Shown: positions 3,421 to 48,800 of the stretch, piece by piece
How positions within the stretch are numbered: the stretch's first letter is position 1
How the letters are laid out: each line of letters begins with the position of its first letter
Source of the DNA: Saccostrea echinata
Taxonomy: Eukaryota
Length of the DNA stretch: 64,000 bases
Assembly: GCF_033153115.1 (NCBI RefSeq)
Contig: NW_026889796.1
Span: 8,494,001-8,558,000, forward strand
Direction of reading: 5' to 3'
Program-made: the position numbers and the translations under genes
Notes under the pieces: model-generated
Database searches by the model: none
What the model was told of the DNA's origin: nothing
What the model saw: only the letters and a program-made list of their open reading frames with translations

Positions 3421-3467
3421 GTAAATTATTCAGCATATAGTCTCAAATCCTTTGAGTTGCGTATTCT

Positions 3468-3632
3468 TAAACAATAAAATACTTACTTTGGTTGTTAGTA
3501 TTGGAATTAATGTTGCAGCTGTTGCAGGAAAAAGCACACGATCCGCGTCAGCGGGTTCTGATTTTTTTTTTCTGCAATAGCTGCAACGTTAATTCCCGTA
3601 CTAACAAAGAAAGAAAGACATTTTATTGTTTA
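3468..3632. repeat. Long imperfect palindrome (palindromic MITE-like element) in the gene 1 intron
   Basis: TAAACAATAAAAT...TTGTTAGTATTGGAATTAATGTTGCAGCTGTTGCAGGAAAA pairs with TTTTCTGCAATAGCTGCAACGTTAATTCCCGTACTAACAA...ATTTTATTGTTTA. Confidence 0.75.
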
Positions 3633-3766
3633 TATTTATATTTGTATAAATAATCATTATTAAGTATTTAACATAATATATTATTGGGATACAGGCATGG
3701 AATATATTTTTCTTATATGTAATAACATATTTTCACCTTTCTTTTAACATTTCTTTTTTATCCAAG

Positions 3767-21800: not shown

Positions 21801-24800
21801 AAAACATTCATAAATTGGACAACTTTATGGTTATAAGAAACTCTAATATTGCGAATTTATGAATTGATTTTCTCTCATACATATTGAAAATACCAAAAAT
21901 TTCATCTTGTATATATTTATGGGTGAATTTGGTGGGGGAAAAATTTTGTTTTTATTGTTCAAGATTTTAGAAGGCTAAGAAAATGTATAGCGGGGTAATT
22001 CAAGAAGTTCTAAAAAGGTTTTTAAAAATGTTGGTCTCCTTGCAATATTCTCGTTTAATGAAAGCTGACATGAAAGGAGTATGATTCTATCTATTCAATG
22101 TAAAAGGATAAACTTTAACTTGATTAGTGTCTTTTTATTTTCCAGCTTTACAGAGATGTTATACATGCTCACACGGAAAGAAAAATAGTGACTGTACAAA
22201 GATAGAAACTTGCAAGAAGGATGAAGAGGTAATATATCACATTACTTTGAAAGCGGAGAGCTGCCAATATGTTGGACAGATTCATGATTTTAACAAAGAT
22301 TCGTTTCAAAATTCCTTTTACAGGTTGTTGATTGCTTGTAATGATGTTGAACATTTTATAAACTTTTCTAAACATATTCACAATCTTTGAGGTATCTTTC
22401 CTTCTGAAATCTTATTTTCTTTAAAAAAAAAAACTTTAGTCCAGATAAAACTAGTCCTAATTGTAACGGATACCGTCCCAGATGTTCCGGGAACACTCCC
22501 CTATTCCCTTTTGGTGCCCTGTTCCCTATACACTACATTAAACTAGACAAAATCCTTATAATATAGACTTTCACATCTTATTTTATTTTGGGGAAATACA
22601 ATCAATGCACATAGAGTGCATGTTCATGCATGTGTTTTGAAAATTTGTATATACATTATCTTAACAAATTTTAGATTTCAAAGAATTTTACCGAAAACCT
22701 AGCTAGTTAAAGCAACCCAAATATTAACCAATCACAATTCACATGTGCATGCATGTCCTCATATTCATTTCTGATGATTCCATAATTTACATACACTCTG
22801 AATTTCGTCTTCTAAGATATAACTAAGATATAAATTCTCACAATTTTAGCCAATCAGATTTCAGAAGGCGTGCTTGCGCGTATTAAATTTACCACATATA
22901 TATTCTAATAGTACTTTATAATATATATCCATGTTTTAAATTTCAAAGTAGTCTTTTGAGTAGTAAGAGAGATACAGCCTGTAAAGTATTACATGTAGCT
23001 AATACGTTTTCTGCACGTGTTCATGCATGTCGTTGACTTCAATTTTAATGGTAGCATAATGTGGGAACCCATTATACCTATCTATGTTCTTAGTTTCATT
23101 CTCTTTTGTTGAAAACTAAGGAACTCACAGCCAGTTAAAGGTTCAGCCAATCAAAAACGTTTTCGAGATTTTGGATATAACATAATACAGAACTAATAAG
23201 ATATATCTATGTTTTAAATTTCAAAGTATTTTCTGAAAAAACAAGCAAGATATTGAGATTTTTGTATCAGTCAAATAATATCATGCATGTGCGTGGGTTC
23301 ATACTAATTTGACCGTGTTATCTTGTTTAATCTGTTAATGTATCCTTATATTTTGGGTTCTAAAGCTTTTCATCAAAAATGTAAAAGTTACCGATAAATA
23401 AAGTAAATCAATCAATTCACTCAATGCACGTTCATAGAAGTGCGCGCAATATAATATTCGTTCTGCAAATCAACACAACATCGCTATTAACCCAACAGAG
23501 GTTTCACTTCAATCGGATAAGTAGTTTCCGAGATCATCGCCGACAAAAAAGCACCAAGAAAAAAGAAAAAAAGAGTAAAACAATATGTTCAAAACTTAGG
23601 GAACTGAATAAGGAAGAAAGTTGGTCAATGAGCAGATGTTTTTGATCAGCTTTTGACTGTTTGATCTTGCAGAGTTGTGAAACGAAAATACGCAGGGATA
23701 AAGGTGAAATTCGCAAGAAATGCGAAAAGACCAAGGATTGCAAGCCCAAGTGTGATGCAAAAGACAAGGAGTGTACTATGTGTTGCACCGGGGATCTATG
23801 TAACAAAGATCATGGTAGATAGAATTTTAATGGAGAAATTCTCTGAAAGATACAAAAAAATTGTATTTACTGCTGAAAGTGTCAAAGATCTTGAAGAATT
23901 ATGTGTAAAAAAATGTTTTTTTGTTTATTAGGATATGCTGAGTTCAAGGCTTGGGGACAATGGTCGTCATGTAGCAAACAATGTGGAGGAGGCAAGCGCA
24001 GCAGAAGCAGACAATGTTCTTCTACAGGCAATCTTCCATGTTCTGGTGATACCAAAGAGGAGCAAGATTGCAACAAGCACACATGTCCACCAAAAGGTAA
24101 TGTTCAATAAAGTTCCGTTCTTCTGTCATTTATCTTTTTAAAAAATGTAGAGGGCTCTGACTTATGAATTGAATATAATCTCTTATAGGTGTCAAGTGTT
24201 AGCTTTTGAGTTTTCAAAGAACAACCTAAACCGACATGATTTCGTCTACATAAATCATCTCATGAGATTTGCACTCTTATCCAACCCAATTTAAAATCTT
24301 GGTTAATTTGGCTAGAAAATGACAAACAATAGCATGTTTACCTTGAAACAATTGGCTAGCTGTACATTAAATCTCCATTCCACAAATACAGATAAAGCGA
24401 TTTCTGTTTTTATTTTCTTTGTTTTTTTTCTTTTTCTTTTTCTTTTTTTTTTTTTTTTTTTTTTTTTGTTTTGAGAGGGGTAAAAAGTTTTTTTTAAGTC
24501 TTCGTGAAATATGATTCTCGTTTGATGTAAGCTGACAAAAAAGGAGTACAATTTGATATATTTACTGAAAAAGAATGAACGTTAACATGATATGTGTCTT
24601 TTAAATTTCCAGCCTTACAAAGATGTTACACGTGCTCACATGGAAAGAAAAATAGTGACTGTACAAAGATAGAAACTTGCAAGAAGGATGAGGAGGTAAA
24701 ACTAGCAAATACTTTGAAAGTGGAGAGATGTCCATAGATTGGATATATTCATGTTCTTCGATGTTTTCATTTTAAACTCAAAACTGAGAAAATTAAGTGC

Positions 24801-27800
24801 ATGCAAGAGAATGAAAGAAGTTGGTTGATAAGCAGATGTTTTTAATAAGTTTTGGAATGTTTGAATTTGTAGACTTGTGAAACAAAGATACGCAGAGATA
24901 AAGATGAAATTCGCAAGAAATGTGAAAAGACCAAGGATTGCAAGCCTAAATGTGATGCGAAAGACAAGGAATGCACCATGTGTTGCACCGGGGATCTGTG
25001 TAACAAAGATCATGGTAGGAAGAAAATTAACGTAAAATAACAAAAGAAATTTAAATATAATTCGTGTTTACGGAAGAAATTGTGAAACGTCTTGGAAGAA
25101 TTATGTGTTATAAGAAGTGTGATTTTGTTAATTAGGATATGCTGAGTTCAAAGCTTGGGGACAATGGTCGTCATGTAGCAAACAATGTGGAGGAGGCAAG
25201 CGCAGCAGAAGCAGACAGTGTTCTTCTACAGGCAATCTTCCATGTTCTGGTGATACCAAAGAGGAGCAAGATTGCAACAAGCACTCATGTCCTCCGAAAG
25301 GTAGTGTTGAAAATGTGTTAATTCGTTTTTTCTTATTTTTGAAAGCAGAGGTCTTTGTCTCATTAGAATTAACTTTCGAGTTCTGAAAGAATTAAGGGTA
25401 AGACTTTAATTTTTATGCGTACATAAGTTCGCTATATCATTATCACCTTTCCACGAGATAAATTGAAATGCTTGTCTTTTTGGCGAGTAAACAATTTTGG
25501 AGGAAACGCATACTTGAAAACAATCTGATTGATTTTACAATGAAACTCGTTTTATACGAATATAAAATAGGTTATTTAGATATGCAGCTATAGGCAGCTA
25601 TGTTCTATGGGGTTCCCCAATAAAATTCCAAGTTAGAAAGGTATTGAGAGGAAAAAGAATGAACTGATATTTTCTAATGCAATAGACAGGACTTAAACAT
25701 CCTTAATGTCTTATATTTTCAGGTGTACAGAGATGTTACACGTGCTCACATGGAAAGAAAAATAGTGACTGTACAAAGATAGAAACTTGCAAGAAGGATG
25801 AGGAGGTAAAACTAGCAAATACTTTGAAAGTGGAAAGATGTGCGTAGGGTTGGGCAGATCCATGCTGTTACCAAAGATTCGTTTCAAAAACCATTTGCTA
25901 AACCGTTTTTTGCTTGAATTGATGTACGTTTTAATACATGTTCGTTCTTAGCAATTAAATATTAAGAATCTACGAGGTCTCCTTCCTTTTGTTATCCATC
26001 CAACTGGGAGAAAAATTCAGTCCAGTTAAAAGAATAAAAGAAGTTGGTTGATGAGCAGATGTTTGAAATGAGCTTAAGCTTTTGAATGTTTGATCTTGCA
26101 GACTTGTGAAACAAAGATACGCAGAGATAAAGGCGAAATTCGCAAGAAATGCGAAAAGACCAAGGATTGCAAGCCTAAATGTGATGCAAAAGACAAGGAA
26201 TGCACCATGTGTTGCACCGGGGATCTGTGTAACAAAGACCACGGTAGATAATTTTTTTTTTTTTACAAAATAATTCAGAAAGGATTAAAAGGTGTTCACG
26301 TCAGAAATTGAGAACGATTTTAAAGATTTGTATAGTAAGAAGCAATGAAGTTCTAATTGTGTATTGTAGGATATGCAGAGTTCAAGGCTTGGGGACAATG
26401 GTCGTCATGTAGCAAACAATGTGGAGGAGGCAAGCGCAGCAGAAGCCGACAATGTTCCTCTACAGGCAATCTTCCATGTTCTGGTGATACCAAAGAGGAG
26501 CAAGATTGCAACAAGCATTCATGTCAAACAAATGGTAGTGTTCAAAGAACTGTCTTTTCTGTTTCATCTTGTAATCTGAAGAGCTTTGGCTAAAAAATTG
26601 TATTTGACCGGATATATTTGCTACTTTTATATCATAACGAAAAGGGTGCTGATTGGGAATGACACTGCTTATCTCCCATATTTCTGATATGACCAGTTAA
26701 TAAATATTTGAAATATAATTGTCTGGAGCAACAATGTGATCGACCAACTAAAAGTTTTGCTTTTACATATTCACTTCATTGTCATCTTTGCTGCTTTAAA
26801 ATGGGAAAAAAAGTTGGCTGATTAGATGAAAACGGAGATATCCTTGGGATGGGGAAATGTTTTATAAGGTCATTCAACATTGTTACATTGTTATATGATC
26901 TATTTCCAACACTTCTAAGTAGAATTATTTCCCATAAGAATTGTGCCGTTTTGTGGAGTTTTTTTGTTTGTTTGATTCATGATAACATCAAAAAATTTTG
27001 AATTAATTTATTTTAATATAGTACATAGCTTCTACTTAAAACTAGGTACTACTAGGTACTACTACTTCATGTATTTTTGAAACCCTTAAAAGAAGTGTAA
27101 GTCGTAATTGATGTTGTATTTAATGCGTCTTTTTAAGGTAAGTCTGTAGATCAAACTTGTTACTACCATGTTGATTCTGAAACCTTTCAATGTAGTTTGC
27201 GTGAGCGATTGTAAAGGAAAGAAGAATGGAGACTACCAATCCTGTAGCACGTGTAATGGTTTCATCAAATGCTCCAACTCCAAATTGCATAATTTCAAAT
27301 GCCCAGGATCAACTGTCTGGGATGACAAATCTAAAAGATGTGAATGGACATCAACTACCTGTAATTCTAAACCAGGTAGGAATGAAAATATCATCTGATT
27401 GTTACATCAGTGGTTTTAGTGTAGGCCAGCCACTTTGAATATTTCTTTTAGGTGGGTTGCGATAAGTGGATGAAAGAATTTGGTTTCTAGGTTTATTATT
27501 TTTACAGGCAAATAAAATAAGAACTTCAAAACAGATTTTGAAAAAATATGTACTCTTCGTGCATTTTCCTTCTGGTTTTGTGCAAGCTGACATGAAAGAA
27601 TATAAAGTGATATCTTTTACTGAAATAGAATAAACTGACAATGAATGTGTTTTGTATTTCCAGCTTTACAGAGATGTTACACGTGCTCACACGGAAAGAA
27701 AAATAGTGACTGTACAAAGATAGAAACTTGCAAGAAGGATGAGGAGGTAAAACTAGCAAATACTTTGAAAGTGGAGAGATGTCCATAGATTGGATATATT

Positions 27801-30800
27801 CATGTTCTTCGATGTTTTCCTTTTAAACTCAAAACTGAGAAAATTAAGTGCATGCAAGAGAATGAAAGAAGTTGGTTGATAAGCAGATGTTTTTGATAAG
27901 TTTTGGAATGTTTGAATTTGTAGACTTGTGAAACAAAGATACGCAGAGATAAAGATGAAATTCGCAAGAAATGTGAAAAGACCAAGGATTGCAAGCCTAA
28001 ATGTGATGCGAAAGACAAGGAATGCACCATGTGTTGCACCGGGGATCTGTGTAACAAAGATCATGGTAGGAAGAAAATTAACGTAAAATAACAAAAGAAA
28101 TTTAAATATAATTCGTGTTTACGGAAGAAATTGTGAAACGTCTTGGAAGAATTATGTGTTATAAGAAGTGTGATTTTGTTAATTAGGATATGCTGAGTTC
28201 AAAGCTTGGGGACAATGGTCGTCATGTAGCAAACAATGTGGAGGAGGCAAGCGCAGCAGAAGCAGACAGTGTTCTTCTACAGGCAATCTTCCATGTTCTG
28301 GTGATACCAAAGAGGAGCAAGATTGCAACAAGCACTCATGTCCTCCGAAAGGTAGTGTTGAAAATGTGTTAATTCGTTTTTTTCTTATTTTTGAAAGCAG
28401 AGGTCTTTGTCTCATTAGAATTAACTTTCGAGTTCTGAAAGAATTAAGGGTAAGACTTTAATTTTTATGCGTACATAAGTTCGCTATATCATTATCACCT
28501 TTCCACGAGATAAATTGAAATGCTTGTCTTTTTGGCGAGTAAACAATTTTGGAGGAAACGCATACTTGAAAACAATCTGATTGATTTTACAATGAAACTC
28601 GTTTTATACGAATATAAAATAGGTTATTTAGATATGCAGCTATGGGCAGCTATGTTCTATGGGGTTCCCCAATAAAATTCCAAGTTAGAAAGGTATTGAG
28701 AGGAAAAAGAATGAACTGATATTTTCTAATGCAATAGACAGGACTTAAACATCCTTAATGTCTTATATTTTCAGGTGTACAGAGATGTTACACGTGCTCA
28801 CATGGAAAGAAAAATAGTGACTGTACAAAGATAGAAACTTGCAAGAAGGATGAAGAGGTAAAACTAGCAAATACTTTGAAAGTGGAAAGATGTGCGTAGG
28901 GTTGGGCAGATCCATGCTGTTACCAAAGATTCGTTTCAAAAACCATTTGCTAAACCGTTTTTTGCTTGAATTGATGTACGTTTTAATACATGTTCGTTCT
29001 TAGCAATTAAATATTAAGAATCTACGAGGTCTCCTTCCTTTTGTTATCCATCCAACTGGGAGAAAAATTCAGTCCAGTTAAAAGAATAAAAGAAGTTGGT
29101 TGATGAGCAGATGTTTGAAATGAGCTTAAGCTTTTGAATGTTTGATCTTGCAGACTTGTGAAACAAAGATACGCAGAGATAAAGGCGAAATTCGCAAGAA
29201 ATGCGAAAAGACCAAGGATTGCAAGCCTAAATGTGATGCAAAAGACAAGGAATGCACCATGTGTTGCACCGGGGATCTGTGTAACAAAGACCACGGTAGA
29301 TAATTTTTTTTTTTACAAAATAATTCAGAAAGGATTAAAAGGTGTTCACGTCAGAAATTGAGAACGATTTTAAAGATTTGTATAGTAAGAAGCAATGAAG
29401 TTCTAATTGTGTATTGTAGGATATGCAGAGTTCAAGGCTTGGGGACAATGGTCGTCATGTAGCAAACAATGTGGAGGAGGCAAGCGCAGCAGAAGCCGAC
29501 AATGTTCCTCTACAGGCAATCTTCCATGTTCTGGTGATACCAAAGAGGAGCAAGATTGCAACAAGCATTCATGTCAAACAAATGGTAGTGTTCAAAGAAC
29601 TGTCTTTTCTGTTTCATCTTGTAATCTGAAGAGCTTTGGCTAAAAAATTGTATTTGACCGGATATATTTGCTACTTTTATATCATAACGAAAAGGGTGCT
29701 GATTGGGAATGACACTGCTTATCTCCCATATTTCTGATATGACCAGTTAATAAATATTTGAAATATAATTGTCTGGAGCAACAATGTGATCGACCAACTA
29801 AAAGTTTTGCTTTTACATATTCACTTCATTGTCATCTTTGCTGCTTTAAAATGGGAAAAAAAGTTGACTGATTAGATGAAAACGGAGATATCCTTGGGAT
29901 GGGGAAATGTTTTATAAGGTCATTCAACATTGTTACATTGTTATATGATCTATTTCCAACACTTCTAAGTAGAATTATTTCCCATAAGAATTGTGCCGTT
30001 TTGTGGAGTTTTTTTGTTTGTTTGATGCATGATAACATCAAAAAATTTTGAATTAATTTATTTTAATATAGTACATAGCTTCTACTTAAAACTAGGTACT
30101 ACTAGGTACTACTACTTCATGTATTTTTGAAACCCTTAAAAGAAGTGTAAGTCGTAATTGATGTTGTATTTAATGCGTCTTTTTAAGGTAAGTCTGTAGA
30201 TCAAACTTGTTACTACCATGTTGATTCTGAAACCTTTCAATGTAGTTTGCGTGAGCGATTGTAAAGGAAAGAAGAATGGAGACTACCAATCCTGTAGCAC
30301 GTGTAATGGTTTCATCAAATGCTCCAACTCCAAATTGCATAATTTCAAATGCCCAGGATCAACTGTCTGGGATGACAAATCTAAAAGATGTGAATGGACA
30401 TCAACTACCTGTAATTCTAAACCAGGTAGGAATGAAAATATCATCTGATTGTTACATCAGTGGTTTTAGTGTAGGCCAGCCACTTTGAATATTTCTTTTA
30501 GGTGGGTTGCGATAAGTAGATGAAAGAATTTGGTTTCTAGGTTTATTATTTTTACAGGCAAATAAAATAAGAACTTCAAAACAGATTTTGAAAAAATATG
30601 TACTCTTCGTGCATTTTCCTTCTGGTTTTGTGCAAGCTGACATGAAAGAATATAAAGTGATATCTTTTACTGAAATAGAATAAACTGACAATGAATGTGT
30701 TTTGTATTTCCAGCTTTACAGAGATGTTACACGTGCTCACACGGAAAGAAAAATAGTGACTGTACAAAGATAGAAACTTGCAAGAAGGATGAGGAGGTAA

Positions 30801-33800
30801 AACTAGCAAATACTTTGAAAGTGGAGAGATGTCCATAGATTGGATATATTCATGTTCTTCGATGTTTTCCTTTTAAACTCAAAACTGAGAAAATTAAGTG
30901 CATGCAAGAGAATGAAAGAAGTTGGTTGATAAGCAGATGTTTTTGATAAGTTTTGGAATGTTTGAATTTGTAGACTTGTGAAACAAAGATACGCAGAGAT
31001 AAAGATGAAATTCGCAAGAAATGTGAAAAGACCAAGGATTGCAAGCCTAAATGTGATGCGAAAGACAAGGAATGCACCATGTGTTGCACCGGGGATCTGT
31101 GTAACAAAGATCATGGTAGGAAGAAAATTAACGTAAAATAACAAAAGAAATTTAAATATAATTCGTGTTTACGGAAGAAATTGTGAAACGTCTTGGAAGA
31201 ATTATGTGTTATAAGAAGTGTGATTTTGTTAATTAGGATATGCTGAGTTCAAAGCTTGGGGACAATGGTCGTCATGTAGCAAACAATGTGGAGGAGGCAA
31301 GCGCAGCAGAAGCAGACAGTGTTCTTCTACAGGCAATCTTCCATGTTCTGGTGATACCAAAGAGGAGCAAGATTGCAACAAGCACTCATGTCCTCCGAAA
31401 GGTAGTGTTGAAAATGTGTTAATTCGTTTTTTTCTTATTTTTGAAAGCAGAGGTCTTTGTCTCATTAGAATTAACTTTCGAGTTCTGAAAGAATTAAGGG
31501 TAAGACTTTAATTTTTATGCGTACATAAGTTCGCTATATCATTATCACCTTTCCACGAGATAAATTGAAATGCTTGTCTTTTTGGCGAGTAAACAATTTT
31601 GGAGGAAACGCATACTTGAAAACAATCTGATTGATTTTACAATGAAACTCGTTTTATACGAATATAAAATAGGTTATTTAGATATGCAGCTATGGGCAGC
31701 TATGTTCTATGGGGTTCCCCAATAAAATTCCAAGTTAGAAAGGTATTGAGAGGAAAAAGAATGAACTGATATTTTCTAATGCAATAGACAGGACTTAAAC
31801 ATCCTTAATGTCTTATATTTTCAGGTGTACAGAGATGTTACACGTGCTCACACGGAAAGAAAAATAGTGACTGTACAAAGATAGAAACTTGCAAGAAGGA
31901 TGAGGAGGTAAAACTAGCAAATACTTTGAAAGTGGAAAGATGTGCGTAGGGTTGGGCAGATCCATGCTGTTACCAAAGATTCGTTTCAAAAACCATTTGC
32001 TAAACCGTTTTTTGCTTGAATTGATGTACGTTTTAATACATGTTCGTTCTTAGCAATTAAATATTAAGAATCTACGAGGTCTCCTTCCTTTTGTTATCCA
32101 TCCAACTGGGAGAAAAATTCAGTCCAGTTAAAAGAATAAAAGAAGTTGGTTGATGAGCAGATGTTTGAAATGAGCTTAAGCTTTTGAATGTTTGATCTTG
32201 CAGACTTGTGAAACAAAGATACGCAGAGATAAAGGCGAAATTCGCAAGAAATGCGAAAAGACCAAGGATTGCAAGCCTAAATGTGATGCAAAAGACAAGG
32301 AATGCACCATGTGTTGCACCGGGGATCTGTGTAACAAAGACCACGGTAGATAATTTTTTTTTTACAAAATAATTCAGAAAGGATTAAAAGGTGTTCACGT
32401 CAGAAATTGAGAACGATTTTAAAGATTTGTATAGTAAGAAGCAATGAAGTTCTAATTGTGTATTGTAGGATATGCAGAGTTCAAGGCTTGGGGACAATGG
32501 TCGTCATGTAGCAAACAATGTGGAGGAGGCAAGCGCAGCAGAAGCCGACAATGTTCCTCTACAGGCAATCTTCCATGTTCTGGTGATACCAAAGAGGAGC
32601 AAGATTGCAACAAGCATTCATGTCAAACAAATGGTAGTGTTCAAAGAACTGTCTTTTCTGTTTCATCTTGTAATCTGAAGAGCTTTGGCTAAAAAATTGT
32701 ATTTGACCGGATATATTTGCTACTTTTATATCATAACGAAAAGGGTGCTGATTGGGAATGACACTGCTTATCTCCCATATTTCTGATATGACCAGTTAAG
32801 AAATATTTGAAATATAATTGTCTGGAGCAACAATGTGATCGACCAACTAAAAGTTTTGCTTTTACATATTCACTTCATTGTCATCTTTGCTGCTTTAAAA
32901 TGGGAAAAAAAGTTGACTGATTAGATGAAAACGGAGATATCCTTGGGATGGGGAAATGTTTTATAAGGTCATTCAACATTGTTACATTGTTATATGATCT
33001 ATTTCCAACACTTCTAAGTAGAATTATTTCCCATAAGAATTGTGCCGTTTTGTGGAGTTTTTTGTTTGTTTGATGCATGATAACGTCAAAAAATTTTGAA
33101 TTAATTTATTTTAATATAGTACATAGCTTCTACTTAAAACTAAGTACTACTAGGTACTACTACTTCATGTATTTTTGAAACCCTTAAAAGAAGTGTAAGT
33201 CGTAATTGATGTTGTATTTAATGCGTCTTTTTAAGGTAAGTCTGTAGATCAAACTTGTTACTACCATGTTGATTCTGAAACCTTTCAATGTAGTTTGCGT
33301 GAGCGATTGTAAAGGAAAGAAGAATGGAGACTACCAATCCTGTAGCACGTGTAATGGTTTCATCAAATGCTCCAACTCCAAATTGCATAATTTCAAATGC
33401 CCAGGATCAACTGTCTGGGATGACAAATCTAAAAGATGTGAATGGACATCAACTACCTGTAATTCTAAACCAGGTAGGAATGAAAATATCATCTGATTGT
33501 TACATCAGTGGTTTTAGTGTAGGCCAGCCACTTTGAATATTTCTTTTAGGTGGGTTGCGATAAGTGGATGAAAGAATTTGGTTTCTAGGTTTATTATTTT
33601 TACAGGCAAATAAAATAAGAACTTCAAAACAGATTTTGAAAAAATATGTACTCTTCGTGCATTTTCCTTCTGGTTTTGTGCAAGCTGACATGAAAGAATA
33701 TAAAGTGATATCTTTTACTGAAATAGAATAAACTGACAATGAATGTGTTTTGTATTTCCAGCTTTACAGAGATGTTACACGTGCTCACACGGAAAGAAAA

Positions 33801-36800
33801 ATAGTGACTGTACAAAGATAGAAACTTGCAAGAAGGATGAGGAGGTAAAACTAGCAAATACTTTGAAAGTGGAGAGATGTCCATAGATTGGATATATTCA
33901 TGTTCTTCGATGTTTTCCTTTTAAACTCAAAACTGAGAAAATTAAGTGCATGCAAGAGAATGAAAGAAGTTGGTTGATAAGCAGATGTTTTTAATAAGTT
34001 TTGGAATGTTTGAATTTGTAGACTTGTGAAACAAAGATACGCAGAGATAAAGATGAAATTCGCAAGAAATGTGAAAAGACCAAGGATTGCAAGCCTAAAT
34101 GTGATGCGAAAGACAAGGAATGCACCATGTGTTGCACCGGGGATCTGTGTAACAAAGATCATGGTAGGAAGAAAATTAACGTAAAATAACAAAAGAAATT
34201 TAAATATAATTCGTGTTTACGGAAGAAATTGTGAAACGTCTTGGAAGAATTATGTGTTATAAGAAGTGTGATTTTGTTAATTAGGATATGCTGAGTTCAA
34301 AGCTTGGGGACAATGGTCGTCATGTAGCAAACAATGTGGAGGAGGCAAGCGCAGCAGAAGCAGACAGTGTTCTTCTACAGGCAATCTTCCATGTTCTGGT
34401 GATACCAAAGAGGAGCAAGATTGCAACAAGCACTCATGTCCTCCGAAAGGTAGTGTTGAAAATGTGTTAATTCGTTTTTTTCTTATTTTTGAAAGCAGAG
34501 GTCTTTGTCTCATTAGAATTAACTTTCGAGTTCTGAAAGAATTAAGGGTAAGACTTTAATTTTTATGCGTACATAAGTTCGCTATATCATTATCACCTTT
34601 CCACGAGATAAATTGAAATGCTTGTCTTTTTGGCGAGTAAACAATTTTGGAGGAAACGCATACTTGAAAACAATCTGATTGATTTTACAATGAAACTCGT
34701 TTTATACGAATATAAAATAGGTTATTTAGATATGCAGCTATGGGCAGCTATGTTCTATGGGGTTCCCCAATAAAATTCCAAGTTAGAAAGGTATTGAGAG
34801 GAAAAAGAATGAACTGATATTTTCTAATGCAATAGACAGGACTTAAACATCCTTAATGTCTTATATTTTCAGGTGTACAGAGATGTTACACGTGCTCACA
34901 CGGAAAGAAAAATAGTGACTGTACAAAGATAGAAACTTGCAAGAAGGATGAGGAGGTAAAACTAGCAAATACTTTGAAAGTGGAAAGATGTGCGTAGGGT
35001 TGGGCAGATCCATGCTGTTACCAAAGATTCGTTTCAAAAACCATTTGCTAAACCGTTTTTTGCTTGAATTGATGTACGTTTTAATACATGTTCGTTCTTA
35101 GCAATTAAATATTAAGAATCTACGAGGTCTCCTTCCTTTTGTTATCCATCCAACTGGGAGAAAAATTCAGTCCAGTTAAAAGAATAAAAGAAGTTGGTTG
35201 ATGAGCAGATGTTTGAAATGAGCTTAAGCTTTTGAATGTTTGATCTTGCAGACTTGTGAAACAAAGATACGCAGAGATAAAGGCGAAATTCGCAAGAAAT
35301 GCGAAAAGACCAAGGATTGCAAGCCTAAATGTGATGCAAAAGACAAGGAATGCACCATGTGTTGCACCGGGGATCTGTGTAACAAAGACCACGGTAGATA
35401 ATTTTTTTTTTTACAAAATAATTCAGAAAGGATTAAAAGGTGTTCACGTCAGAAATTGAGAACGATTTTAAAGATTTGTATAGTAAGAAGCAATGAAGTT
35501 CTAATTGTGTATTGTAGGATATGCAGAGTTCAAGGCTTGGGGACAATGGTCGTCATGTAGCAAACAATGTGGAGGAGGCAAGCGCAGCAGAAGCCGACAA
35601 TGTTCCTCTACAGGCAATCTTCCATGTTCTGGTGATACAAAAGAGGAGCAAGATTGCAACAAGCATTCATGTCAAACAAATGGTAGTGTTCAAAGAACTG
35701 TCTTTTCTGTTTCATCTTGTAATCTGAAGAGCTTTGGCTAAAAAATTGTATTTGACCGGATATATTTGCTACTTTTATATCATAACGAAAAGGGTGCTGA
35801 TTGGGAATGACACTGCTTATCTCCCATATTTCTGATATGACCAGTTAATAAATATTTGAAATATAATTGTCTGGAGCAACAATGTGATCGACCAACTAAA
35901 AGTTTTGCTTTTACATATTCACTTCATTGTCATCTTTGCTGCTTTAAAATGGGAAAAAAAGTTGACTGATTAGATGAAAACGGAGATATCCTTGGGATGG
36001 GGAAATGTTTTATAAGGTCATTCAACATTGTTACATTGTTATATGATCTATTTCCAACACTTCTAAGTAGAATTATTTCCCATAAGAATTGTGCCGTTTT
36101 GTGGAGTTTTTTGTTTGTTTGATGCATGATAACGTCAAAAAATTTTGAATTAATTTATTTTAATATAGTACATAGCTTCTACTTAAAACTAAGTACTACT
36201 AGGTACTACTACTTCATGTATTTTTGAAACCCTTAAAAGAAGTGTAAGTCGTAATTGATGTTGTATTTAATGCGTCTTTTTAAGGTAAGTCTGTAGATCA
36301 AACTTGTTACTACCATGTTGATTCTGAAACCTTTCAATGTAGTTTGCGTGAGCGATTGTAAAGGAAAGAAGAATGGAGACTACCAATCCTGTAGCACGTG
36401 TAATGGTTTCATCAAATGCTCCAACTCCAAATTGCATAATTTCAAATGCCCAGGATCAACTGTCTGGGATGACAAATCTAAAAGATGTGAATGGACATCA
36501 ACTACCTGTAATTCTAAACCAGGTAGGAATGAAAATATCATCTGATTGTTACATCAGTGGTTTTAGTGTAGGCCAGCCACTTTGAATATTTCTTTTAGGT
36601 GGGTTGCGATAAGTGGATGAAAGAATTTGGTTTCTAGGTTTATTATTTTTACAGGCAAATAAAATAAGAACTTCAAAACAGATTTTGAAAAAATATGTAC
36701 TCTTCGTGCATTTTCCTTCTGGTTTTGTGCAAGCTGACATGAAAGAATATAAAGTGATATCTTTTACTGAAATAGAATAAACTGACAATGAATGTGTTTT

Positions 36801-39800
36801 GTATTTCCAGCTTTACAGAGATGTTACACGTGCTCACACGGAAAGAAAAATAGTGACTGTACAAAGATAGAAACTTGCAAGAAGGATGAGGAGGTAAAAC
36901 TAGCAAATACTTTGAAAGTGGAGAGATGTCCATAGATTGGATATATTCATGTTCTTCGATGTTTTCCTTTTAAACTCAAAACTGAGAAAATTAAGTGCAT
37001 GCAAGAGAATGAAAGAAGTTGGTTGATAAGCAGATGTTTTTAATAAGTTTTGGAATGTTTGAATTTGTAGACTTGTGAAACAAAGATACGCAGAGATAAA
37101 GATGAAATTCGCAAGAAATGTGAAAAGACCAAGGATTGCAAGCCTAAATGTGATGCGAAAGACAAGGAATGCACCATGTGTTGCACCGGGGATCTGTGTA
37201 ACAAAGATCATGGTAGGAAGAAAATTAACGTAAAATAACAAAAGAAATTTAAATATAATTCGTGTTTACGGAAGAAATTGTGAAAAGTCTTGGAAGAATT
37301 ATGTGTTATAAGAAGTGTGATTTTGTTAATTAGGATATGCTGAGTTCAAAGCTTGGGGACAATGGTCGTCATGTAGCAAACAATGTGGAGGAGGCAAGCG
37401 CAGCAGAAGCAGACAGTGTTCTTCTACAGGCAATCTTCCATGTTCTGGTGATACCAAAGAGGAGCAAGATTGCAACAAGCACTCATGTCCTCCGAAAGGT
37501 AGTGTTGAAAATGTGTTAATTCGTTTTTTCTTATTTTTGAAAGCAGAGGTCTTTGTCTCATTAGAATTAACTTTCGAGTTCTGAAAGAATTAAGGGTAAG
37601 ACTTTAATTTTTATGCGTACATAAGTTCGCTATATCATTATCACCTTTCCACGAGATAAATTGAAATGCTTGTCTTTTTGGCGAGTAAACAATTTTGGAG
37701 GAAACGCATACTTGAAAACAATCTGATTGATTTTACAATGAAACTCGTTTTATACGAATATAAAATAGGTGATTTAGATATGCAGCTATAGGCAGCTATG
37801 TTCTATGGGGTTCCCCAATAAAATTCCAAGTTTGAAAGGTATTGAGAGGAAAAAGAATGAACTGATATTTTCTAATGCAATAGACAGGACTTAAACATCC
37901 TTAATGTCTTATATTTTCAGGTGTACAGAGATGTTACACGTGCTCACATGGAAAGAAAAATAGTGACTGTACAAAGATAGAAACTTGCAAGAAGGATGAG
38001 GAGGTAAAACTAGCAAATACTTTGAAAGTGGAAAGATGTGCGTAGGGTTGGGCAGATCCATGCTGTTACCAAAGATTCGTTTCAAAAACCATTTGCTAAA
38101 CCGTTTTTTGCTTGAATTGATGTACGTTTTAATACATGTTCGTTCTTAGCAATTAAATATTAAGAATCTACGAGGTCTCCTTCCTTTTGTTATCCATCCA
38201 ACTGGGAGAAAAATTCAGTCCAGTTAAAAGAATAAAAGAAGTTGGTTGATGAGCAGATGTTTGAAATGAGCTTAAGCTTTTGAATGTTTGATCTTGCAGA
38301 CTTGTGAAACAAAGATACGCAGAGATAAAGGCGAAATTCGCAAGAAATGCGAAAAGACCAAGGATTGCAAGCCTAAATGTGATGCAAAAGACAAGGAATG
38401 CACCATGTGTTGCACCGGGGATCTGTGTAACAAAGACCACGGTAGATAATTTTTTTTTTTACAAAATAATTCAGAAAGGATTAAAAGGTGTTCACGTCAG
38501 AAATTGAGAACGATTTTAAAGATTTGTATAGTAAGAAGAAGTGTATTGTAGGATATGCAGAGTTCAAGGCTTGGGGACAATGGTCGTCATGTAGCAAACA
38601 ATGTGGAGGAGGCAAGCGCAGCAGAAGCCGACAATGTTCCTCTACAGGCAATCTTCCATGTTCTGGTGATACAAAAGAGGAGCAAGATTGCAACAAGCAT
38701 TCATGTCAAACAAATGGTAGTGTTCAAAGAACTGTCTTTTCTGTTTCATCTTGTAATCTGAAGAACTTTGGCTAAAAAATTGTATTTGACCGGATATATT
38801 TGCTACTTTTATATCATAACGAAAAGGGTGCTGATTGGGAATGACACTGCTTATCTCCCATATTTCTGATATGACCAGTTAATAAATATTTGAAATATAA
38901 TTGTCTGGAGCAACAATGTGATAGACCAACTAAAAGTTTTGCTTTTACATATTCACTTCATTGTCATCTTTGCTGCTTTAAAATGGGAAAAAAAGTTGGC
39001 TGATTAGATGAAAACGGAGATATCCTTGGGATGGGGAAATGTTTTTTAAGGTCATTCAACATTGTTACATTGTTATATGATCTATTTCCAACACTTCTAA
39101 GATAGAATTATTTCCCATAAGAATTGTGCCGTTTTGTGGAGTTTTTTTTTTTGTTTGATTCATGATAACAACAAAAAATTTTGAATTTATTTTAATATAG
39201 TACATAGCTTCTACTTAAAACTAGGTACTACTACTTCATGTATTTTTGAAACCCTTAAAAGAAGTGTAAGTCGTAATTGATGTTGTATTTAATGCGTCTT
39301 TTTAAGGTAAGTCTGTAGATCAAACTTGTTACTACCATGTTGATTCTGAAACCTTTCAATGTAGTTTGCGTGAGCGATTGTAAAGGAAAGAAGAATGGAG
39401 ACTACCAATCCTGTAGCACGTGTAATGGTTTCATCAAATGCTCCAACTCCAAATTGCATAATTTCAAATGCCCAGGATCAACTGTCTGGGATGACAAATC
39501 TAAAAGATGTGAATGGACATCAACTACCTGTAATTCTAAACCAGGTAGGAATGAAAATATCATCTGATTGTTACATCAGTGGTTTTAGTGTAGGCCAGCC
39601 ACTTTGAATATTTCTTTTAGGTGGGTTGCGATAAGTAGATGAAAGAATTTGGTTTCTAGGTTTATTATTTTTACAGGCAAATAAAATAAGAACTTCAAAA
39701 CAGATTTTGAAAAAATATGTACTCTTCGTGCATTTTCCTTCTGGTTTTGTGCAAGCTGACATGAAAGAATATAAAGTGATATCTTTTACTGAAATAGAAT

Positions 39801-42800
39801 AAACTGACAATGAATGTGTTTTGTATTTCCAGCTTTACAGAGATGTTACACGTGCTCACACGGAAAGAAAAATAGTGACTGTACAAAGATAGAAACTTGC
39901 AAGAAGGATGAGGAGGTAAAACTAGCAAATACTTTGAAAGTGGAGAGATGTCCATAGATTGGATATATTCATGTTCTTCGAAGTTTTCCTTTTAAACTCA
40001 AAACTGAGAAAATTAAGTGCATGCAAGAGAATGAAAGAAGTTGGTTGATAAGCAGATGTTTTTAATAAGTTTTGGAATGTTTGAATTTGTAGACTTGTGA
40101 AACAAAGATACGCAGAGATAAAGATGAAATTCGCAAGAAATGTGAAAAGACCAAGGATTGCAAGCCTAAATGTGATGCGAAAGACAAGGAATGCACCATG
40201 TGTTGCACCGGGGATCTGTGTAACAAAGATCATGGTAGGAAGAAAATTAACGTAAAATAACAAAAGAAATTTAAATATAATTCGTGTTTACGGAAGAAAT
40301 TGTGAAAAGTCTTGGAAGAATTATGTGTTATAAGAAGTGTGATTTTGTTAATTAGGATATGCTGAGTTCAAAGCTTGGGGACAATGGTCGTCATGTAGCA
40401 AACAATGTGGAGGAGGCAAGCGCAGCAGAAGCAGACAGTGTTCTTCTACAGGCAATCTTCCATGTTCTGGTGATACCAAAGAGGAGCAAGATTGCAACAA
40501 GCACTCATGTCCTCCGAAAGGTAGTGTTGAAAATGTGTTAATTCGTTTTTTCTTATTTTTGAAAGCAGAGGTCTTTGTCTCATTAGAATTAACTTTCGAG
40601 TTCTGAAAGAATTAAGGGTAAGACTTTAATTTTTATGCGTACATAAGTTCGCTATATCATTATCACCTTTCCACGAGATAAATTGAAATGCTTGTCTTTT
40701 TGGCGAGTAAACAATTTTGGAGGAAACGCATACTTGAAAACAATCTGATTGATTTTACAATGAAACTCGTTTTATACGAATATAAAATAGGTGATTTAGA
40801 TATGCAGCTATAGGCAGCTATGTTCTATGGGGTTCCCCAATAAAATTCCAAGTTTGAAAGGTATTGAGAGGAAAAAGAATGAACTGATATTTTCTAATGC
40901 AATAGACAGGACTTAAACATCCTTAATGTCTTATATTTTCAGGTGTACAGAGATGTTACACGTGCTCACATGGAAAGAAAAATAGTGACTGTACAAAGAT
41001 AGAAACTTGCAAGAAGGATGAGGAGGTAAAACTAGCAAATACTTTGAAAGTGGAAAGATGTGCGTAGGGTTGGGCAGATCCATGCTGTTACCAAAGATTC
41101 GTTTCAAAAACCATTTGCTAAACCGTTTTTTGCTTGAATTGATGTACGTTTTAATACATGTTCGTTCTTAGCAATTAAATATTAAGAATCTACGAGGTCT
41201 CCTTCCTTTTGTTATCCATCCAACTGGGAGAAAAATTCAGTCCAGTTAAAAGAATAAAAGAAGTTGGTTGATGAGCAGATGTTTGAAATGAGCTTAAGCT
41301 TTTGAATGTTTGATCTTGCAGACTTGTGAAACAAAGATACGCAGAGATAAAGGCGAAATTCGCAAGAAATGCGAAAAGACCAAGGATTGCAAGCCTAAAT
41401 GTGATGCAAAAGACAAGGAATGCACCATGTGTTGCACCGGGGATCTGTGTAACAAAGACCACGGTAGATAAATTTTTTTTTTACAAAATAATTCAGAAAG
41501 GATTAAAAGGTGTTCACGTCAGAAATTGAGAACGATTTTAAAGATTTGTATAGTAAGAAGAAGTGTATTGTAGGATATGCAGAGTTCAAGGCTTGGGGAC
41601 AATGGTCGTCATGTAGCAAACAATGTGGAGGAGGCAAGCGCAGCAGAAGCCGACAATGTTCCTCTACAGGCAATCTTCCATGTTCTGGTGATACAAAAGA
41701 GGAGCAAGATTGCAACAAGCATTCATGTCAAACAAATGGTAGTGTTCAAAGAACTGTCTTTTCTGTTTCATCTTGTAATCTGAAGAACTTTGGCTAAAAA
41801 ATTGTATTTGACCGGATATATTTGCTACTTTTATATCATAACGAAAAGGGTGCTGATTGGGAATGACACTGCTTATCTCCCATATTTCTGATATGACCAG
41901 TTAATAAATATTTGAAATATAATTGTCTGGAGCAACAATGTGATAGACCAACTAAAAGTTTTGCTTTTACATATTCACTTCATTGTCATCTTTGCTGCTT
42001 TAAAATGGGAAAAAAAGTTGGCTGATTAGATGAAAACGGAGATATCCTTGGGATGGGGAAATGTTTTTTAAGGTCATTCAACATTGTTACATTGTTATAT
42101 GATCTATTTCCAACACTTCTAAGATAGAATTATTTCCCATAAGAATTGTGCCGTTTTGTGGAGTTTTTTTTTTTTGTTTGATTCATGATAACATCAAAAA
42201 ATTTTGAATTTATTTTAATATAGTACATAGCTTCTACTTAAAACTAGGTACTACTACTTCATGTATTTTTGAAACCCTTAAAAGAAGTGTAAGTCGTAAT
42301 TGATGTTGTATTTAATGCGTCTTTTTAAGGTAAGTCTGTAGATCAAACTTGTTACTACCATGTTGATTCTGAAACCTTTCAATGTAGTTTGCGTGAGCGA
42401 TTGTAAAGGAAAGAAGAATGGAGACTACCAATCCTGTAGCACGTGTAATGGTTTCATCAAATGCTCCAACTCCAAATTGCATAATTTCAAATGCCCAGGA
42501 TCAACTGTCTGGGATGACAAATCTAAAAGATGTGAATGGACATCAACTACCTGTAATTCTAAACCAGGTAGGAATGAAAATATCATCTGATTGTTACATC
42601 AGTGGTTTTAGTGTAGGCCAGCCACTTTGAATATTTCTTTTAGGTGGGTTGCGATAAGTAGATGAAAGAATTTGGTTTCTAGGTTTATTATTTTTACAGG
42701 CAAATAAAATAAGAACTTCAAAACAGATTTTGAAAAAATATGTACTCTTCGTGCATTTTCCTTCTGGTTTTGTGCAAGCTGACATGAAAGAATATAAAGT

Positions 42801-45800
42801 GATATCTTTTACTGAAATAGAATAAACTGACAATGAATGTGTTTTGTATTTCCAGCTTTACAGAGATGTTACACGTGCTCACACGGAAAGAAAAATAGTG
42901 ACTGTACAAAGATAGAAACTTGCAAGAAGGATGAGGAGGTAAAACTAGCAAATACTTTGAAAGTGGAGAGATGTCCATAGATTGGATATATTCATGTTCT
43001 TCGAAGTTTTCCTTTTAAACTCAAAACTGAGAAAATTAAGTGCATGCAAGAGAATGAAAGAAGTTGGTTGATAAGCAGATGTTTTTAATAAGTTTTGGAA
43101 TGTTTGAATTTGTAGACTTGTGAAACAAAGATACGCAGAGATAAAGATGAAATTCGCAAGAAATGTGAAAAGACCAAGGATTGCAAGCCTAAATGTGATG
43201 CGAAAGACAAGGAATGCACCATGTGTTGCACCGGGGATCTGTGTAACAAAGATCATGGTAGGAAGAAAATTAACGTAAAATAACAAAAGAAATTTAAATA
43301 TAATTCGTGTTTACGGAAGAAATTGTGAAAAGTCTTGGAAGAATTATGTGTTATAAGAAGTGTGATTTTGTTAATTAGGATATGCTGAGTTCAAAGCTTG
43401 GGGACAATGGTCGTCATGTAGCAAACAATGTGGAGGAGGCAAGCGCAGCAGAAGCAGACAGTGTTCTTCTACAGGCAATCTTCCATGTTCTAGTGATACC
43501 AAAGAGGAGCAAGATTGCAACAAGCACTCATGTCCTCCGAAAGGTAGTGTTGAAAATGTGTTAATTCGTTTTTTCTTATTTTTGAAAGCAGAGGTCTTTG
43601 TCTCATTAGAATTAACTTTCGAGTTCTGAAAGAATTAAGGGTAAGACTTTAATTTTTATGCGTACATAAGTTCGCTATATCATTATCACCTTTCCACGAG
43701 ATAAATTGAAATGCTTGTCTTTTTGGCGAGTAAACAATTTTGGAGGAAACGCATACTTGAAAACAATCTGATTGATTTTACAATGAAACTCGTTTTATAC
43801 GAATATAAAATAGGTTATTTAGATATGCAGCTATAGGCAGCTATGTTCTATGGGGTTCCCCAATAAAATTCCAAGTTTGAAAGGTATTGAGAGGAAAAAG
43901 AATGAACTGATATTTTCTAATGCAATAGACAGGACTTAAACATCCTTAATGTCTTATATTTTCAGGTGTACAGAGATGTTACACGTGCTCACATGGAAAG
44001 AAAAATAGTGACTGTACAAAGATAGAAACTTGCAAGAAGGATGAGGAGGTAAAACTAGCAAATACTTTGAAAGTGGAAAGATGTGCGTAGGGTTGGGCAG
44101 ATCCATGCTGTTACCAAAGATTCGTTTCAAAAACCATTTGCTAAACCGTTTTTTGCTTGAATTGATGTACGTTTTAATACATGTTCGTTCTTAGCAATTA
44201 AATATTAAGAATCTTCGAGGTCTCCTTCCTTTTGTTATCCATCCAACTGGGAGAAAAATTCAGTCCAGTTAAAAGAATAAAAGAAGTTGGTTGATGAGCA
44301 GATGTTTGAAATGAGCTTTTGAATATTTGATCTTGCAGACTTGTGAAACAAAGATACGCAGAGATAAAGGCGAAATTCGCAAGAAATGCGAAAAGACCAA
44401 GGATTGCAAGCCTAAATGTGATGCAAAAGACAAGGAATGCACCATGTGTTGCACCGGGGATCTGTGTAACAAAGACCACGGTAAATAAACAAAGATTTTA
44501 AAGGCGTTTATTGCTGAAATTGAGAAAGGTTTTTAAAATGTGTATTTGTGTTTCGTAGGATATGCACAGTTCAAAGCTTGGGGACAATGGTCGTCATGTA
44601 GCAAACAATGTGGAGGAGGCAAGCGCAGCAGAAGCAGACAATGTTCCTCTACAGGCAATCTTCCATGTTCTGGCGATACCAAAGAGGAGCAAGATTGCAA
44701 TAAACAACCTTGCGTATCAACACGTACGTTGAAATGAAAATATTTAATTTTTTTTAGAAGTAATATTTATTAATTGATGACAAAGACGATATATATAATT
44801 GGTTTAATTCTTATTTGTAGCAATGAAATGCTTTTCCTGCAGTTTCTCAAGTTCGAACAAGGAATGTAACAAACAAAGAGGAGCTGAGACGTGCAAGAAA
44901 GGTCAAAATGTAAGATATAAGAATGTATGAAAGATAGATTTCGTTGGTTAAATGTATGGCGTCTTATATGTTGATGAAAGAAAAAAAAAAGACTCCCAAT
45001 GGTTTGTTTTTCTTTACTTCTTTTGGTGATGTTGAAGTATTAATTGACCAGTATCTTTTTTTTTAATAAAGATTTGTGGAACAAGGTTAGACAGACGGAC
45101 AAAGAAAGTTATGAAGACATGTGCATCTATGTGTAAACCAAAATGTGACTCAAGGACGTGTACTTTCTGTTGCAATACACCTAATTGTAACGAGGGTATG
45201 CTATTATAATTCTGTTTTATCACATTCTGCTTCACAAATTTATTTTATATAAATGAAATGATATTTTTTTGTTATATCAAACGTTTTTGAATAGTTCTTA
45301 ATTGGGTTTTTGTCACCAAATGTATTTTTAATTCTATTATATACAAGCAGTCCTTTTATAAGGCTGATCCATGGATTTATCAACTTCATTGAATGTATAT
45401 TGATCGAAGTTGAAGTGAGGTCGTACCATAGATTTATCAACTTCATCTTAAAGCATATCCGCATGTAGTGAGCACGAATTGCGAAGATGATTTACTTTTC
45501 TGTGAAAATGAAATATCTAATGGATTGACCGAATTAAGAACACAAATTTTTAATATCATTTTCTTTTGGACAAAAAGATGCAAGGTCACCATAGTAGAGT
45601 ATTTTTGATCGTCTATTTCTACAATGATCTTATCGTAGTTAAAAAAATCTTTGATTTTTTTCCGATTTTGTTTTAGTAAGTCATGTAAATATTGCTAAAA
45701 TAGGATTTAGGTATCATATTAAATTTTACTGAATACCCAGTGATATTAAAATAAAATGATCGTTGTTAAATAACATTTACGGTATACTTACATTGTAGAA

Positions 45801-48800
45801 TATGGAACATATAGTCCATGGTCAAACTGGGAAATTGATACAATAAATAATGTTGATCGACTGAAACGAAAGCGAAGCTGTACTTCTGGCGAATGCTCGG
45901 GAAATCTTGTTGAAACTAAAGCATGTACGCCAACCCTTTGTAAAAGTAAGTAAATTTTTTTATGTTATAACGAACTTTTTTAATATCCCAATACTAAGAG
46001 ATTTCTTGTTCTGTATATAAGTGAGATTTTTTTAAAAATATAAGCTTAGGTGAGTTAACACGACACGCACGTGCAGTTCACACCTGCGGGTTTGTTAAGG
46101 ACAGCAAAGTTATTGTACATAGACTATTCTTTGATGCATGGTATTTATCGCACATGGCGATAAGTGCAATTACCTATGGTATGATTTTCAAAGCTGACGC
46201 CTTACTTGATTTTTATTGTATTTTAAATCAATTTGATCTTCTGAACACATGATCAACAAATGATAAAAATGAAATGAACTTGTACTGTTGTATGTAAATA
46301 AAAGAACAGAAAACGAAACCCTTATAACAAACATTTTTTGCAGAAAGAAATATTTGTGAATACATTTTTTAAAACCAATAGTATAGAGTATCTGCAAGAT
46401 GTTCTTGAAAAGGAAAACTTGTAAGATTTTATTATATTTTTAAAAAAATATATCAAACATTAAGTGCTAAAGAAAAATAATTTTGTGAAATAAAAATTGC
46501 TTCATAAATTACAGGATCTGAATGTTTTACGTGTAGTAATGCAAAATCTAATGAGGAGTGCAATAAAAACGGAGGAGTGAGGAAATGTCGTTCTGGGCAA
46601 AATGTAAGTAAAATATAAAAAGTGGGCACAAAATATATGTACAATGAGGACGAAATGTAAGTTAAGTTAGGGCGAAATATATGCACACTAAGAAAAAAAA
46701 ATGAATTTTCGTTAAGAACGAAATTAATGTTCGGTAAGAACGAAATGTAAGTACACTGAGGGGCGAGATGTATGTACAGTAAGATTAAAATGTACGTACA
46801 ATGAGGAATAAATGTGTGTACATTAAGGATAAAATGTATTTATATATAATGAAGACCAAATGAATGAACAGTGAGGAGGAGGAAATATAAGTACAGTTAA
46901 CCAAAATATGTCTAATATAGCTGAAAATACAAGAATCTAGGTTCAAATTTTTATTACAATATGGAAAAATGTAAATTTCTTTTAGTAATGAATTTAATTG
47001 GGGCAGTTTTCCCTTTGCGGTTTATAAAAAAAGTAAACTGTTCCAACCCAGTTTATACCGTATAAATTCGGTAGGTATTAAATTCATTCCTTATAATTTA
47101 ATTTTCATTCATTTAGTGTAAGACAAAACGATGATTGCGCTTTAAAAAAAAAAGACTTTAAATTTTACAAAATTTGAACGTAACGTCAGGTGGATCGATA
47201 CCTAGTCATTGTGACGTAGTAAATTCTTAATCCAATCAAATACCGCGTTATGATCAGAATTGAAATATAAACCAAAATAAAAGATAAACATATTTACTGA
47301 TATTATTTTTATTCTCTAAACATATAATTTTTTAATTAGATAGCAAGAATAAAAATTCATATTCTCCTATTCATATAATTTATGAGGCAAATCTCATCCA
47401 TAAATTTCATTTCGTAAATGAAGCATTTTGTGTTTAGTTATTTCTAATTGTTTTCGACGTTTAACTTATAAAAGAAATAAAACTGTATAAGAATATCGCA
47501 AGATACATATATTTTTGAAACTCAACGAAAGACAGACTTTACAAAAGAATTAGCGACATAGTTTCTCTCTGTTATGGGCCCGAAAAGTTGCTTTAATTAA
47601 AAACAAGTAATAGCTTTTCAAAAAGCTTGCCCGACTAATCAATCGTTATCTATGGAACGTATAAGCAAGAGAGGTGCTAAACGTTTCATCAAGGAGCGAC
47701 ATAGTTGCGATACTTCATTACACAATCTTGATGTACAATTGCATCGCCGTAGGAACCGGGGGAGGGGGCACGGGAGAGCCGTGCCCCCCCCCCCCCAAAT
47801 AATTTTGCCGATATATAGAATACAATAGAAAACATAGCTGCTATATGCTTGTGCCCCCACAATAATAATAATGTCTGATGACTTTTTTTTGCTTGTCAAG
47901 GAATTTTGGTAGTTCATAGTGCCCCCCCCCCCAACTGAAAATGTATTGTTGTGCCCCCTCAAAGTGAAATTCCCACTGGCCTGAATTGACTTTCTCAGAT
48001 GTCTTAAACAAATACTACAGATTAATAAATATCTAAGACATGCCACTATTTGGTCATTTACTAGTTAGCCCACGAGCTGACTAGTTCCGTTGGGATGAAA
48101 CTGCAAGTGCCCTAGCGTAGATTATAATTCTGGGGAAAATAGTTAGATGATTTGTTTTAAAGAAATTTATATTACATGTACTCTCTTACCAGAGGACGCC
48201 CTTCGTCATGCACACTCTCGTCAGTGATAGATTGATGAGACTGCCTCTATTTATAGACTGGTCTCTTTTCCGTCGTTCTCGACGACGAAGTAAATTATGA
48301 ACACTTTTAACTGGGAAAGTTGTCTTGAAGTGTTTGAGACAAAAATGCTTCAATGCTGCTCTAGAACTCAAAGTAAATGGCCTGTACAGTTTATAGCTAG
48401 AGCAAAACAAGATACTAATAACACCCCTCCCCCCTCTCCGGACAAAACTCACGCAATGATGGTCTTACCATATACATGTACATGTATTATAAATGAGTTT
48501 AAAATACATCCTTTTGTACAGTTTTAAAATTGTTCAGTTTTTCTTTTAAATCGATTTCAGGACCTTTCTCATAATTATAATAACGTGCTTTTTTATGAAA
48601 TGAAAACCAGTATAGATTATATGATGTCTTCTTCATTTTGCCGATTCTTTACTTAGAACCTTATGGGAGTGAAGCCCATTCCTCTACGGGTACTGACCTA
48701 CACTGTTGTCACTGTAATATGCTACTGGCAGACTTTCTAAGCTTTTTTAAAAGCCTAACCTTGTAACGTACTTAATTAATAAATGTAATATTGAAAGAAA

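Follow-up and report, generated by a model that had tools for sequence, protein, structure and literature searches.

How does a single gene come to carry some 20 kb of exons and introns repeated almost without change, and what does the repeat do to the protein? The question is raised by a window of 64,000 nucleotides from the oyster Saccostrea echinata (assembly GCF_033153115.1, contig NW_026889796.1, 8,494,001-8,558,000), to whose positions all coordinates refer. Comparison of the window with itself uncovered one dominant tandem structure, from ~24.6 to ~44.5 kb, in which a cassette of LU, TSP1 and CBM14 domain exons recurs. The evidence makes it probable that this is a real, in-frame array of seven-exon units within one oyster gene. 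Unequal crossing-over has likely both multiplied the units and kept them uniform, and their number, which would set the length of a surface tether with a predicted glycosylphosphatidylinositol (GPI) anchor, likely varies.

A seven-exon cassette repeated in frame

The array extends from 24613 to 44483 (19,871 bp, or ~6.5 units), with periods of 3051, 3050, 3048, 3049, 3022 and 3023 bp between LU1a acceptors. Each copy contributes exons of 83, 142, 165, 83, 142, 165 and 180 nt, all seven bounded by AG/GT and in phases 1-0-1, for a total of 960 nt or 320 aa in frame. With introns included, the copies differ pairwise by substitutions at 0.10-0.61% of positions (21 pairs). Six of the seven intact CBM14 exons lie inside the array and one outside it; an eighth is dead, having lost its acceptor AG, acquired indels and been split by a ~300-bp interspersed repeat (Table 1). 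The extent, the periods, the seven exons and 320 aa per copy and the share of CBM14 exons in the array agree exactly with a preliminary description of the locus, whose claims of recent homogenisation and of a mechanism like that of LPA are likewise upheld. Its single amplification event is not, as older duplications flank the array and two other oyster genera hold arrays of their own, and we regard its interpretation overall as partly supported and here extended.

Joined from 14052 to 61585, 88 exons form one open frame of 3858 aa with no splice site other than GT-AG. The protein consists, in order, of a signal peptide, 25 LU-TSP1 modules with seven intact CBM14 domains, a TSP1-TSP1-LDLa stretch and a hydrophobic tail with no cytoplasmic part. 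Its last 800 aa are identical to the S. echinata RefSeq protein P0003 and its start matches residues 25-530 of P0004. The 4-nt first exon is an uncertain candidate, RefSeq placing the start elsewhere, near 13624-13707. Single exons pass the Pfam cut-offs for TSP1, CBM14 and LDLa, the CBM14 exon by itself matching CBM_14 at E=8.5e-11 (42.3 bits, cut-off 22.1). For the LU domain, a single module scores 28.2 bits against PF00087 (cut-off 21.2) over positions 1-72 of 72, with PF00021 under its cut-off; 12 cysteines are present in 25 of 25 domains, in a pattern ending CCxxxxCN, and the match to LYPD6 is weak (E=0.006). Two structure predictions were too low in mean pLDDT (predicted local distance difference test; 42.8 and 35.3) to use, and the putative three-finger assignment comes from sequence profiles. 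The TSP1-TSP1-LDLa stretch matches residues 7-150 of complement C6 (E=6e-11), with no MACPF domain in the Pfam scan. Owing to a 34-bp duplication at 61161-61229, the LDLa exon has two candidate acceptors 34 bp apart, only one of which is in frame.

Two identities suggested by automatic names were rejected. SCO-spondin is marked by VWD/C8/TIL domains and an LDLa cluster; P0003, P0004 and five orthologue records gave no VWD/C8/TIL Pfam match, and the gene has one LDLa exon only. For ADAMTS, the same records gave no metalloprotease Pfam match and the 88-exon model leaves no space for one. The product (~429 kDa) contains 14.2% lysine and 13.4% cysteine and has a net charge of +233. Hydrophobic segments are confined to its N- and C-termini, and hydropathy fits the GPI pattern of signal peptide, polar spacer, C-terminal hydrophobic tail and no cytoplasmic tail; the protein is predicted to be anchored on the cell surface, likely by GPI.

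Transcription was assessed from one public run (X1), guessed to be RNA, which contains 0.10 of the window's words. A 3489-nt contig is joined at GT-AG sites from the array's final TSP1 exon into module 18, with pieces reaching 61034, so that transcription and splicing of the 3' half follow the model. Contig depth over array exons (12.5) is not six times that over unique exons (16.2); such depth is not a measure of copy number, and the ratio is uninformative because a 3' coverage decay of ~2-2.5 kb would give the same value with six copies. In unique exons, window and X1 show 11 differences in 848 nt (~1%, from the five pieces listed), and X1 may represent another population. Three further differences within array exons were not counted as alleles: the letters occur in other TSP1/CBM14 exons of the gene (one also in copies 1-3) and may be due to assembly-graph mixing.

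Homogenisation, probable crossing-over and copy number

Upstream of the array, identity to the neighbouring copy is 0.25-0.45; it reaches 0.75 over the last 20 bp ahead of 24613 and 0.9-1.0 from there on, and drops past 44483, where the final LU exon has its donor. Both edges of homogenisation lie at exon ends, the 5' one in the LU exon that opens copy 1. Across the copies there are 29 variable sites (22 intronic, 7 exonic), 18 of them common to at least two copies; with three copy-1 edge sites dropped, exonic and intronic variation (4/960 and 22/2090) do not differ significantly (p=0.09). Copies c1-c4 form one subgroup and c5-c7 a second, ~0.5-0.6% apart; copy 5 begins like the first and then turns into the second, which is 27 bp shorter. 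Divergence grows with distance along the array (Spearman rho 0.70; the 21 pairs are not independent).

Concerted evolution by unequal crossing-over is likely the best reading of this pattern. Every domain is a phase 1-1 module, such that a crossover between any matching exons would preserve the frame. Purifying selection may keep old paralogous exons alike and so give recombination a foothold; in modules 2-5 the proportion of non-synonymous differences (pN, 0-0.03) is far below that of synonymous differences (pS, 0.07-0.49), which therefore indicates purifying selection on the exons, and the flanking introns are ~30% diverged. Recombination between conserved exons of this kind would have put a 1.9-kb LU-TSP1-LU block on either side of TSP1-CBM14, and mispairing and unequal crossing-over of the duplicated block would then add or remove whole units. 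The half copy would be explained in the same way. Array length likely varies between individuals, given that two other oyster genera have separately expanded different blocks of the gene, and the differing unit counts of two Magallana gigas records lend this indirect support. The copies also differ less among themselves (by 0.1-0.6%, for the most part in introns) than window and X1 do in unique exons, which suggests that homogenisation is younger than typical alleles and copy number unfixed.

Several observations weigh against this account. A single switch along the array is seen at only 16 of 27 gap-free sites, and the subgroup switch at c4/c5 could be a haplotype switch in the assembly. Among the X1 contigs listed none spans the array, and no DNA run was among the public runs listed. 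RefSeq leaves the locus as seven separate records (XP_061194688-694), and CBM_14 is not among the Pfam matches of whole P0004, though the lone exon scores above cut-off. The unit counts of orthologues come from gene models of repetitive assemblies.

Two structural alternatives follow from these points. It is improbable that the array exists with a count inflated by assembly, for example by placing one haplotype (c1-c4) in tandem with a second (c5-c7). The sharp switch within copy 5 and the size of the between-group difference would fit such a join, and in sea urchin EBR1 repeat counts vary by study (5, 6 and 9; PMC13672419); however, each subgroup comprises several distinguishable copies, the sharing of variable sites among copies is unlike random errors, the longest exact match between neighbouring copies is 1489 bp, and the orthologue arrays are equally long or longer. 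The exact count of 6.5 could still be partly a product of assembly. It is even less probable that a real and recent amplification is now fixed in S. echinata and hence no variable number tandem repeat (VNTR). Against fixation, window and X1 differ more in unique exons than the copies do among themselves, the M. gigas orthologue count differs between records, and abalone VERL arrays of similar type vary in length (PMC2704960).

Orthologous genes in other oysters

Orthologues were found in Magallana gigas (A0A8W8ITE4, XP_065925106.1), Ostrea edulis (XP_056004191.1/XP_056004192.1) and Saccostrea cucullata (XP_062588843.1), and have in common with S. echinata an LU-TSP1 array, eight conserved modules, TSP1-TSP1-LDLa and a hydrophobic tail. 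The array unit differs by genus: (LU-TSP1)2-CBM14 in S. echinata, (LU-TSP1)3-CBM14 in O. edulis (447 aa, with six CBM14 in one record) and LU-TSP1 alone in Magallana (128 aa). No CBM14 was detected in any Magallana record scanned, and chitin valency is therefore not a conserved feature. The preliminary description had copy number setting both protein length and chitin valency; the arithmetic holds for length and CBM14 count. The S. cucullata model (one CBM14) looks broken and fused and was left out of the counts. That model (P0028) opens with an IgGFc-binding domain before its LU-TSP1 modules, likely a fused neighbour or assembly join. In Magallana angulata (P0033) the first module type is present three times (the first partial) where M. 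gigas has it once, which marks another independent duplication.

Two M. gigas records, which from their accession series we take to derive from different assemblies, have 27 units (P0023) and at least 31 (P0017; 30 starts listed, one spanning two mis-spliced units, the last unit partial). Their variant strings differ: one variant makes up 22 of the 30 listed P0017 units and 4 of 27 in P0023, and private variants occur in both. In a tree built by a quick method from 128 columns, modules 18-25 mostly cluster by position across genera, while the Magallana N-terminal units form one clade (support 99) and those of S. echinata another (88). Identity among modules 2-17 is 97-100% within S. echinata and 74-82% to the Magallana and Ostrea arrays.

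Modules 18-25 had been described as highly diverged. They are so from each other (34-60% identity), but between Saccostrea and Magallana they are conserved (63-76%) like the array module (74%); because the latter value falls within the former range, modules 18-25 are ancient paralogues that have not evolved fast, and the array gives no sign of an arms race. In modules 18, 19, 21, 23, 24 and 25 (45799-60171) the TSP1 exon is a shortened form without the first cysteine pair, which the orthologues have as well. In module 21, a 53-bp minisatellite of 3.9 copies (53327-53538) starts inside the LU exon at its 3' end and repeats that end with the donor site. As judged from the sequences compared, the S. 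echinata array is the most recent instance of a process that has recurred in this oyster gene. A profile search of 1.84 billion representatives, with one 45-position half-domain as query, returned no long LU-TSP1 protein outside oysters in 20 matches.

Table 1. Features of the gene, by position in the window.
Feature	Position	Strand	Basis
Candidate start exon, ATG G/gt	14052..14055	+	sequence
Signal-peptide exon, hydrophobic core	14841..14924	+	
Dead CBM14 exon; no acceptor AG, indels; interspersed repeat ~18231-18540 flanked by short direct repeat	18090..18598	+	
Module 1: LU (two exons) and TSP1, diverged	18967..19725	+	
Intact CBM14 exon outside the array	20019..20198	+	
Modules 2-3: older duplicates, protein near-identical, introns ~30% diverged	20701..24096	+	
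Array copy 1, LU-TSP1-LU-TSP1-CBM14, 7 exons; 5' homogenisation edge in first exon	24613..27663	+	
Array copy 2	27664..30713	+	
Array copy 3	30714..33761	+	
Array copy 4	33762..36810	+	
Array copy 5, subgroup switch inside	36811..39832	+	
Array copy 6	39833..42855	+	
Half copy 7, LU-TSP1-LU; homogenisation stops at LU donor site	42856..44483	+	
Older TSP1 exon, closes module 17; X1 splices to module 18	44559..44723	+	
Modules 18-25: LU and full or shortened TSP1; positional orthologues across genera	44821..60171	+	
TSP1-TSP1-LDLa exons	60510..61382	+	
Final exon: polar spacer, then hydrophobic tail and stop; GPI signal predicted	61518..61585	+	identical to P0003 end

Elsewhere in the window, a two-exon gene upstream (2095-4153, + strand) encodes DUSP, ubiquitin-like, coiled-coil and BTB/POZ (KCTD-type) domains, with no peptidase domain seen. 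A dispersed ~300-bp repeat, by its look similar to a short interspersed nuclear element, lies at 8695-8993, 18242-18540, 12528-12789 and 16214-16416; two copies are 96% identical, one interrupts the dead CBM14 exon, and the repeat had no match in Rfam. An open frame at 11158-11622 (- strand) resembles a reverse-transcriptase fragment of a retroelement.

Known systems and possible roles

The S. echinata array has the multi-exon, in-frame unit and the near-identity, introns included, of a coding macro-VNTR, and its repeats are closer within than between species, as in concerted arrays. Kringle IV-2 of LPA is alike in its kilobase unit (5.6 kb, against 3.0 kb in the oyster), in-frame intragenic domain repeats and near-identical copies; in contrast, what repeats in the oyster is a higher-order cassette, seven exons long and built from three domain types, the proteins are unrelated, and a polymorphism of 1-40 units is demonstrated in LPA and inferred only in the oyster (PMC11462820). 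EBR1 shares species-specific, near-identical X-TSP1 tandem repeats in an extracellular protein of ~4000 aa, with counts that differ between assemblies as the oyster gene-model counts do, but in the oyster LU replaces CUB, there is no metalloprotease and the array is ~74-82% conserved between genera (PMC13672419). VERL, also molluscan, has diverged first repeats, a homogenised interior and a length polymorphism ascribed to unequal crossing-over; the oyster protein differs in its domain, in the eight old modules after the array and in giving no sign of fast divergence (PMC2704960). The oyster protein is outside the LPA, VERL and EBR1 families. For domain repeats, concerted evolution is described as genuine though rare (PMC5100051). 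The mechanism is thus known and the protein apparently undescribed: searches of the open literature (accessions; oyster Ly6/thrombospondin; coding VNTR), outside which most subscription papers lie, found no description of it.

As to function, our preferred reading, held tentatively and at a little under an even chance, is that of a lysine-rich, disulphide-bonded, GPI-anchored rod linking an epithelium to a polyanionic or chitinous extracellular matrix. Domain sizes put the length of such a rod at roughly 0.2 micrometre. Its CBM14 domains, for which chitin binding is predicted, look like an optional grip, the Magallana models having none. The nearest functional model is dumpy, an apical tether of Drosophila; like the oyster protein as predicted, it is a giant anchored extracellular protein with a length-variable internal array, although the domains differ and the tether role of the oyster protein is inferred. 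Dumpy is named as length-variable in PMC5100051. Mentions of oyster 'SCO-spondin' in larval studies (PMC7525975, 10.1101/2020.03.25.004614) and in a shell-proteome study (PMC13425148) are not linkable to the gene from the parts consulted.

A molecular ruler is a doubtful extension of the tether: three genera would independently have re-expanded the same N-terminal segment to ~4000-5000 residues, under selection, with different units that carry one chitin grip to two modules, one to three or none at all. Unlikely as a function is a mucosal defence or microbe-trapping protein, a cationic rod with CBM14 for fungal or parasite chitin and a C6-like TSP1-TSP1-LDLa end. The C6 match and the net positive charge favour such a role, and concerted repeats have been tied hypothetically to host-parasite arms races (PMC5100051); however, no MACPF domain appeared in the Pfam scan, purifying selection is strong and the array module evolves no faster than the remaining modules. 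An egg- or sperm-surface recognition protein, which would pair homogenised, species-specific TSP1 arrays like those of EBR1 and VERL with the LU domain that Bouncer carries, is very unlikely. In its favour, the homogenised array is lineage-specific and the oyster a marine invertebrate that spawns, a GPI tail is predicted, and EBR1 has the same layout with CUB-TSP1; however, CBM14 is a poor fit, and the array module, at 74% between Saccostrea and Magallana, lies within the non-array range, whereas the EBR1 array is described as without significant between-species identity (PMC13672419).

For the oyster gene family, the arrays offer a natural experiment, in which one gene holds three independent arrays with different higher-order units beside eight static modules. 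The seven RefSeq records at this locus are likely one gene, and their automatic names (SCO-spondin-like, ADAMTS adt-like) are misleading and call for correction. If copy number segregates, it would be a large coding variant in farmed oysters that is unseen by single-nucleotide polymorphism panels. If the array does act as a ruler, segregating copy number would adjust both the length of the tether and its hold on chitin, and so affect shell, gill or settlement traits that breeders could type.

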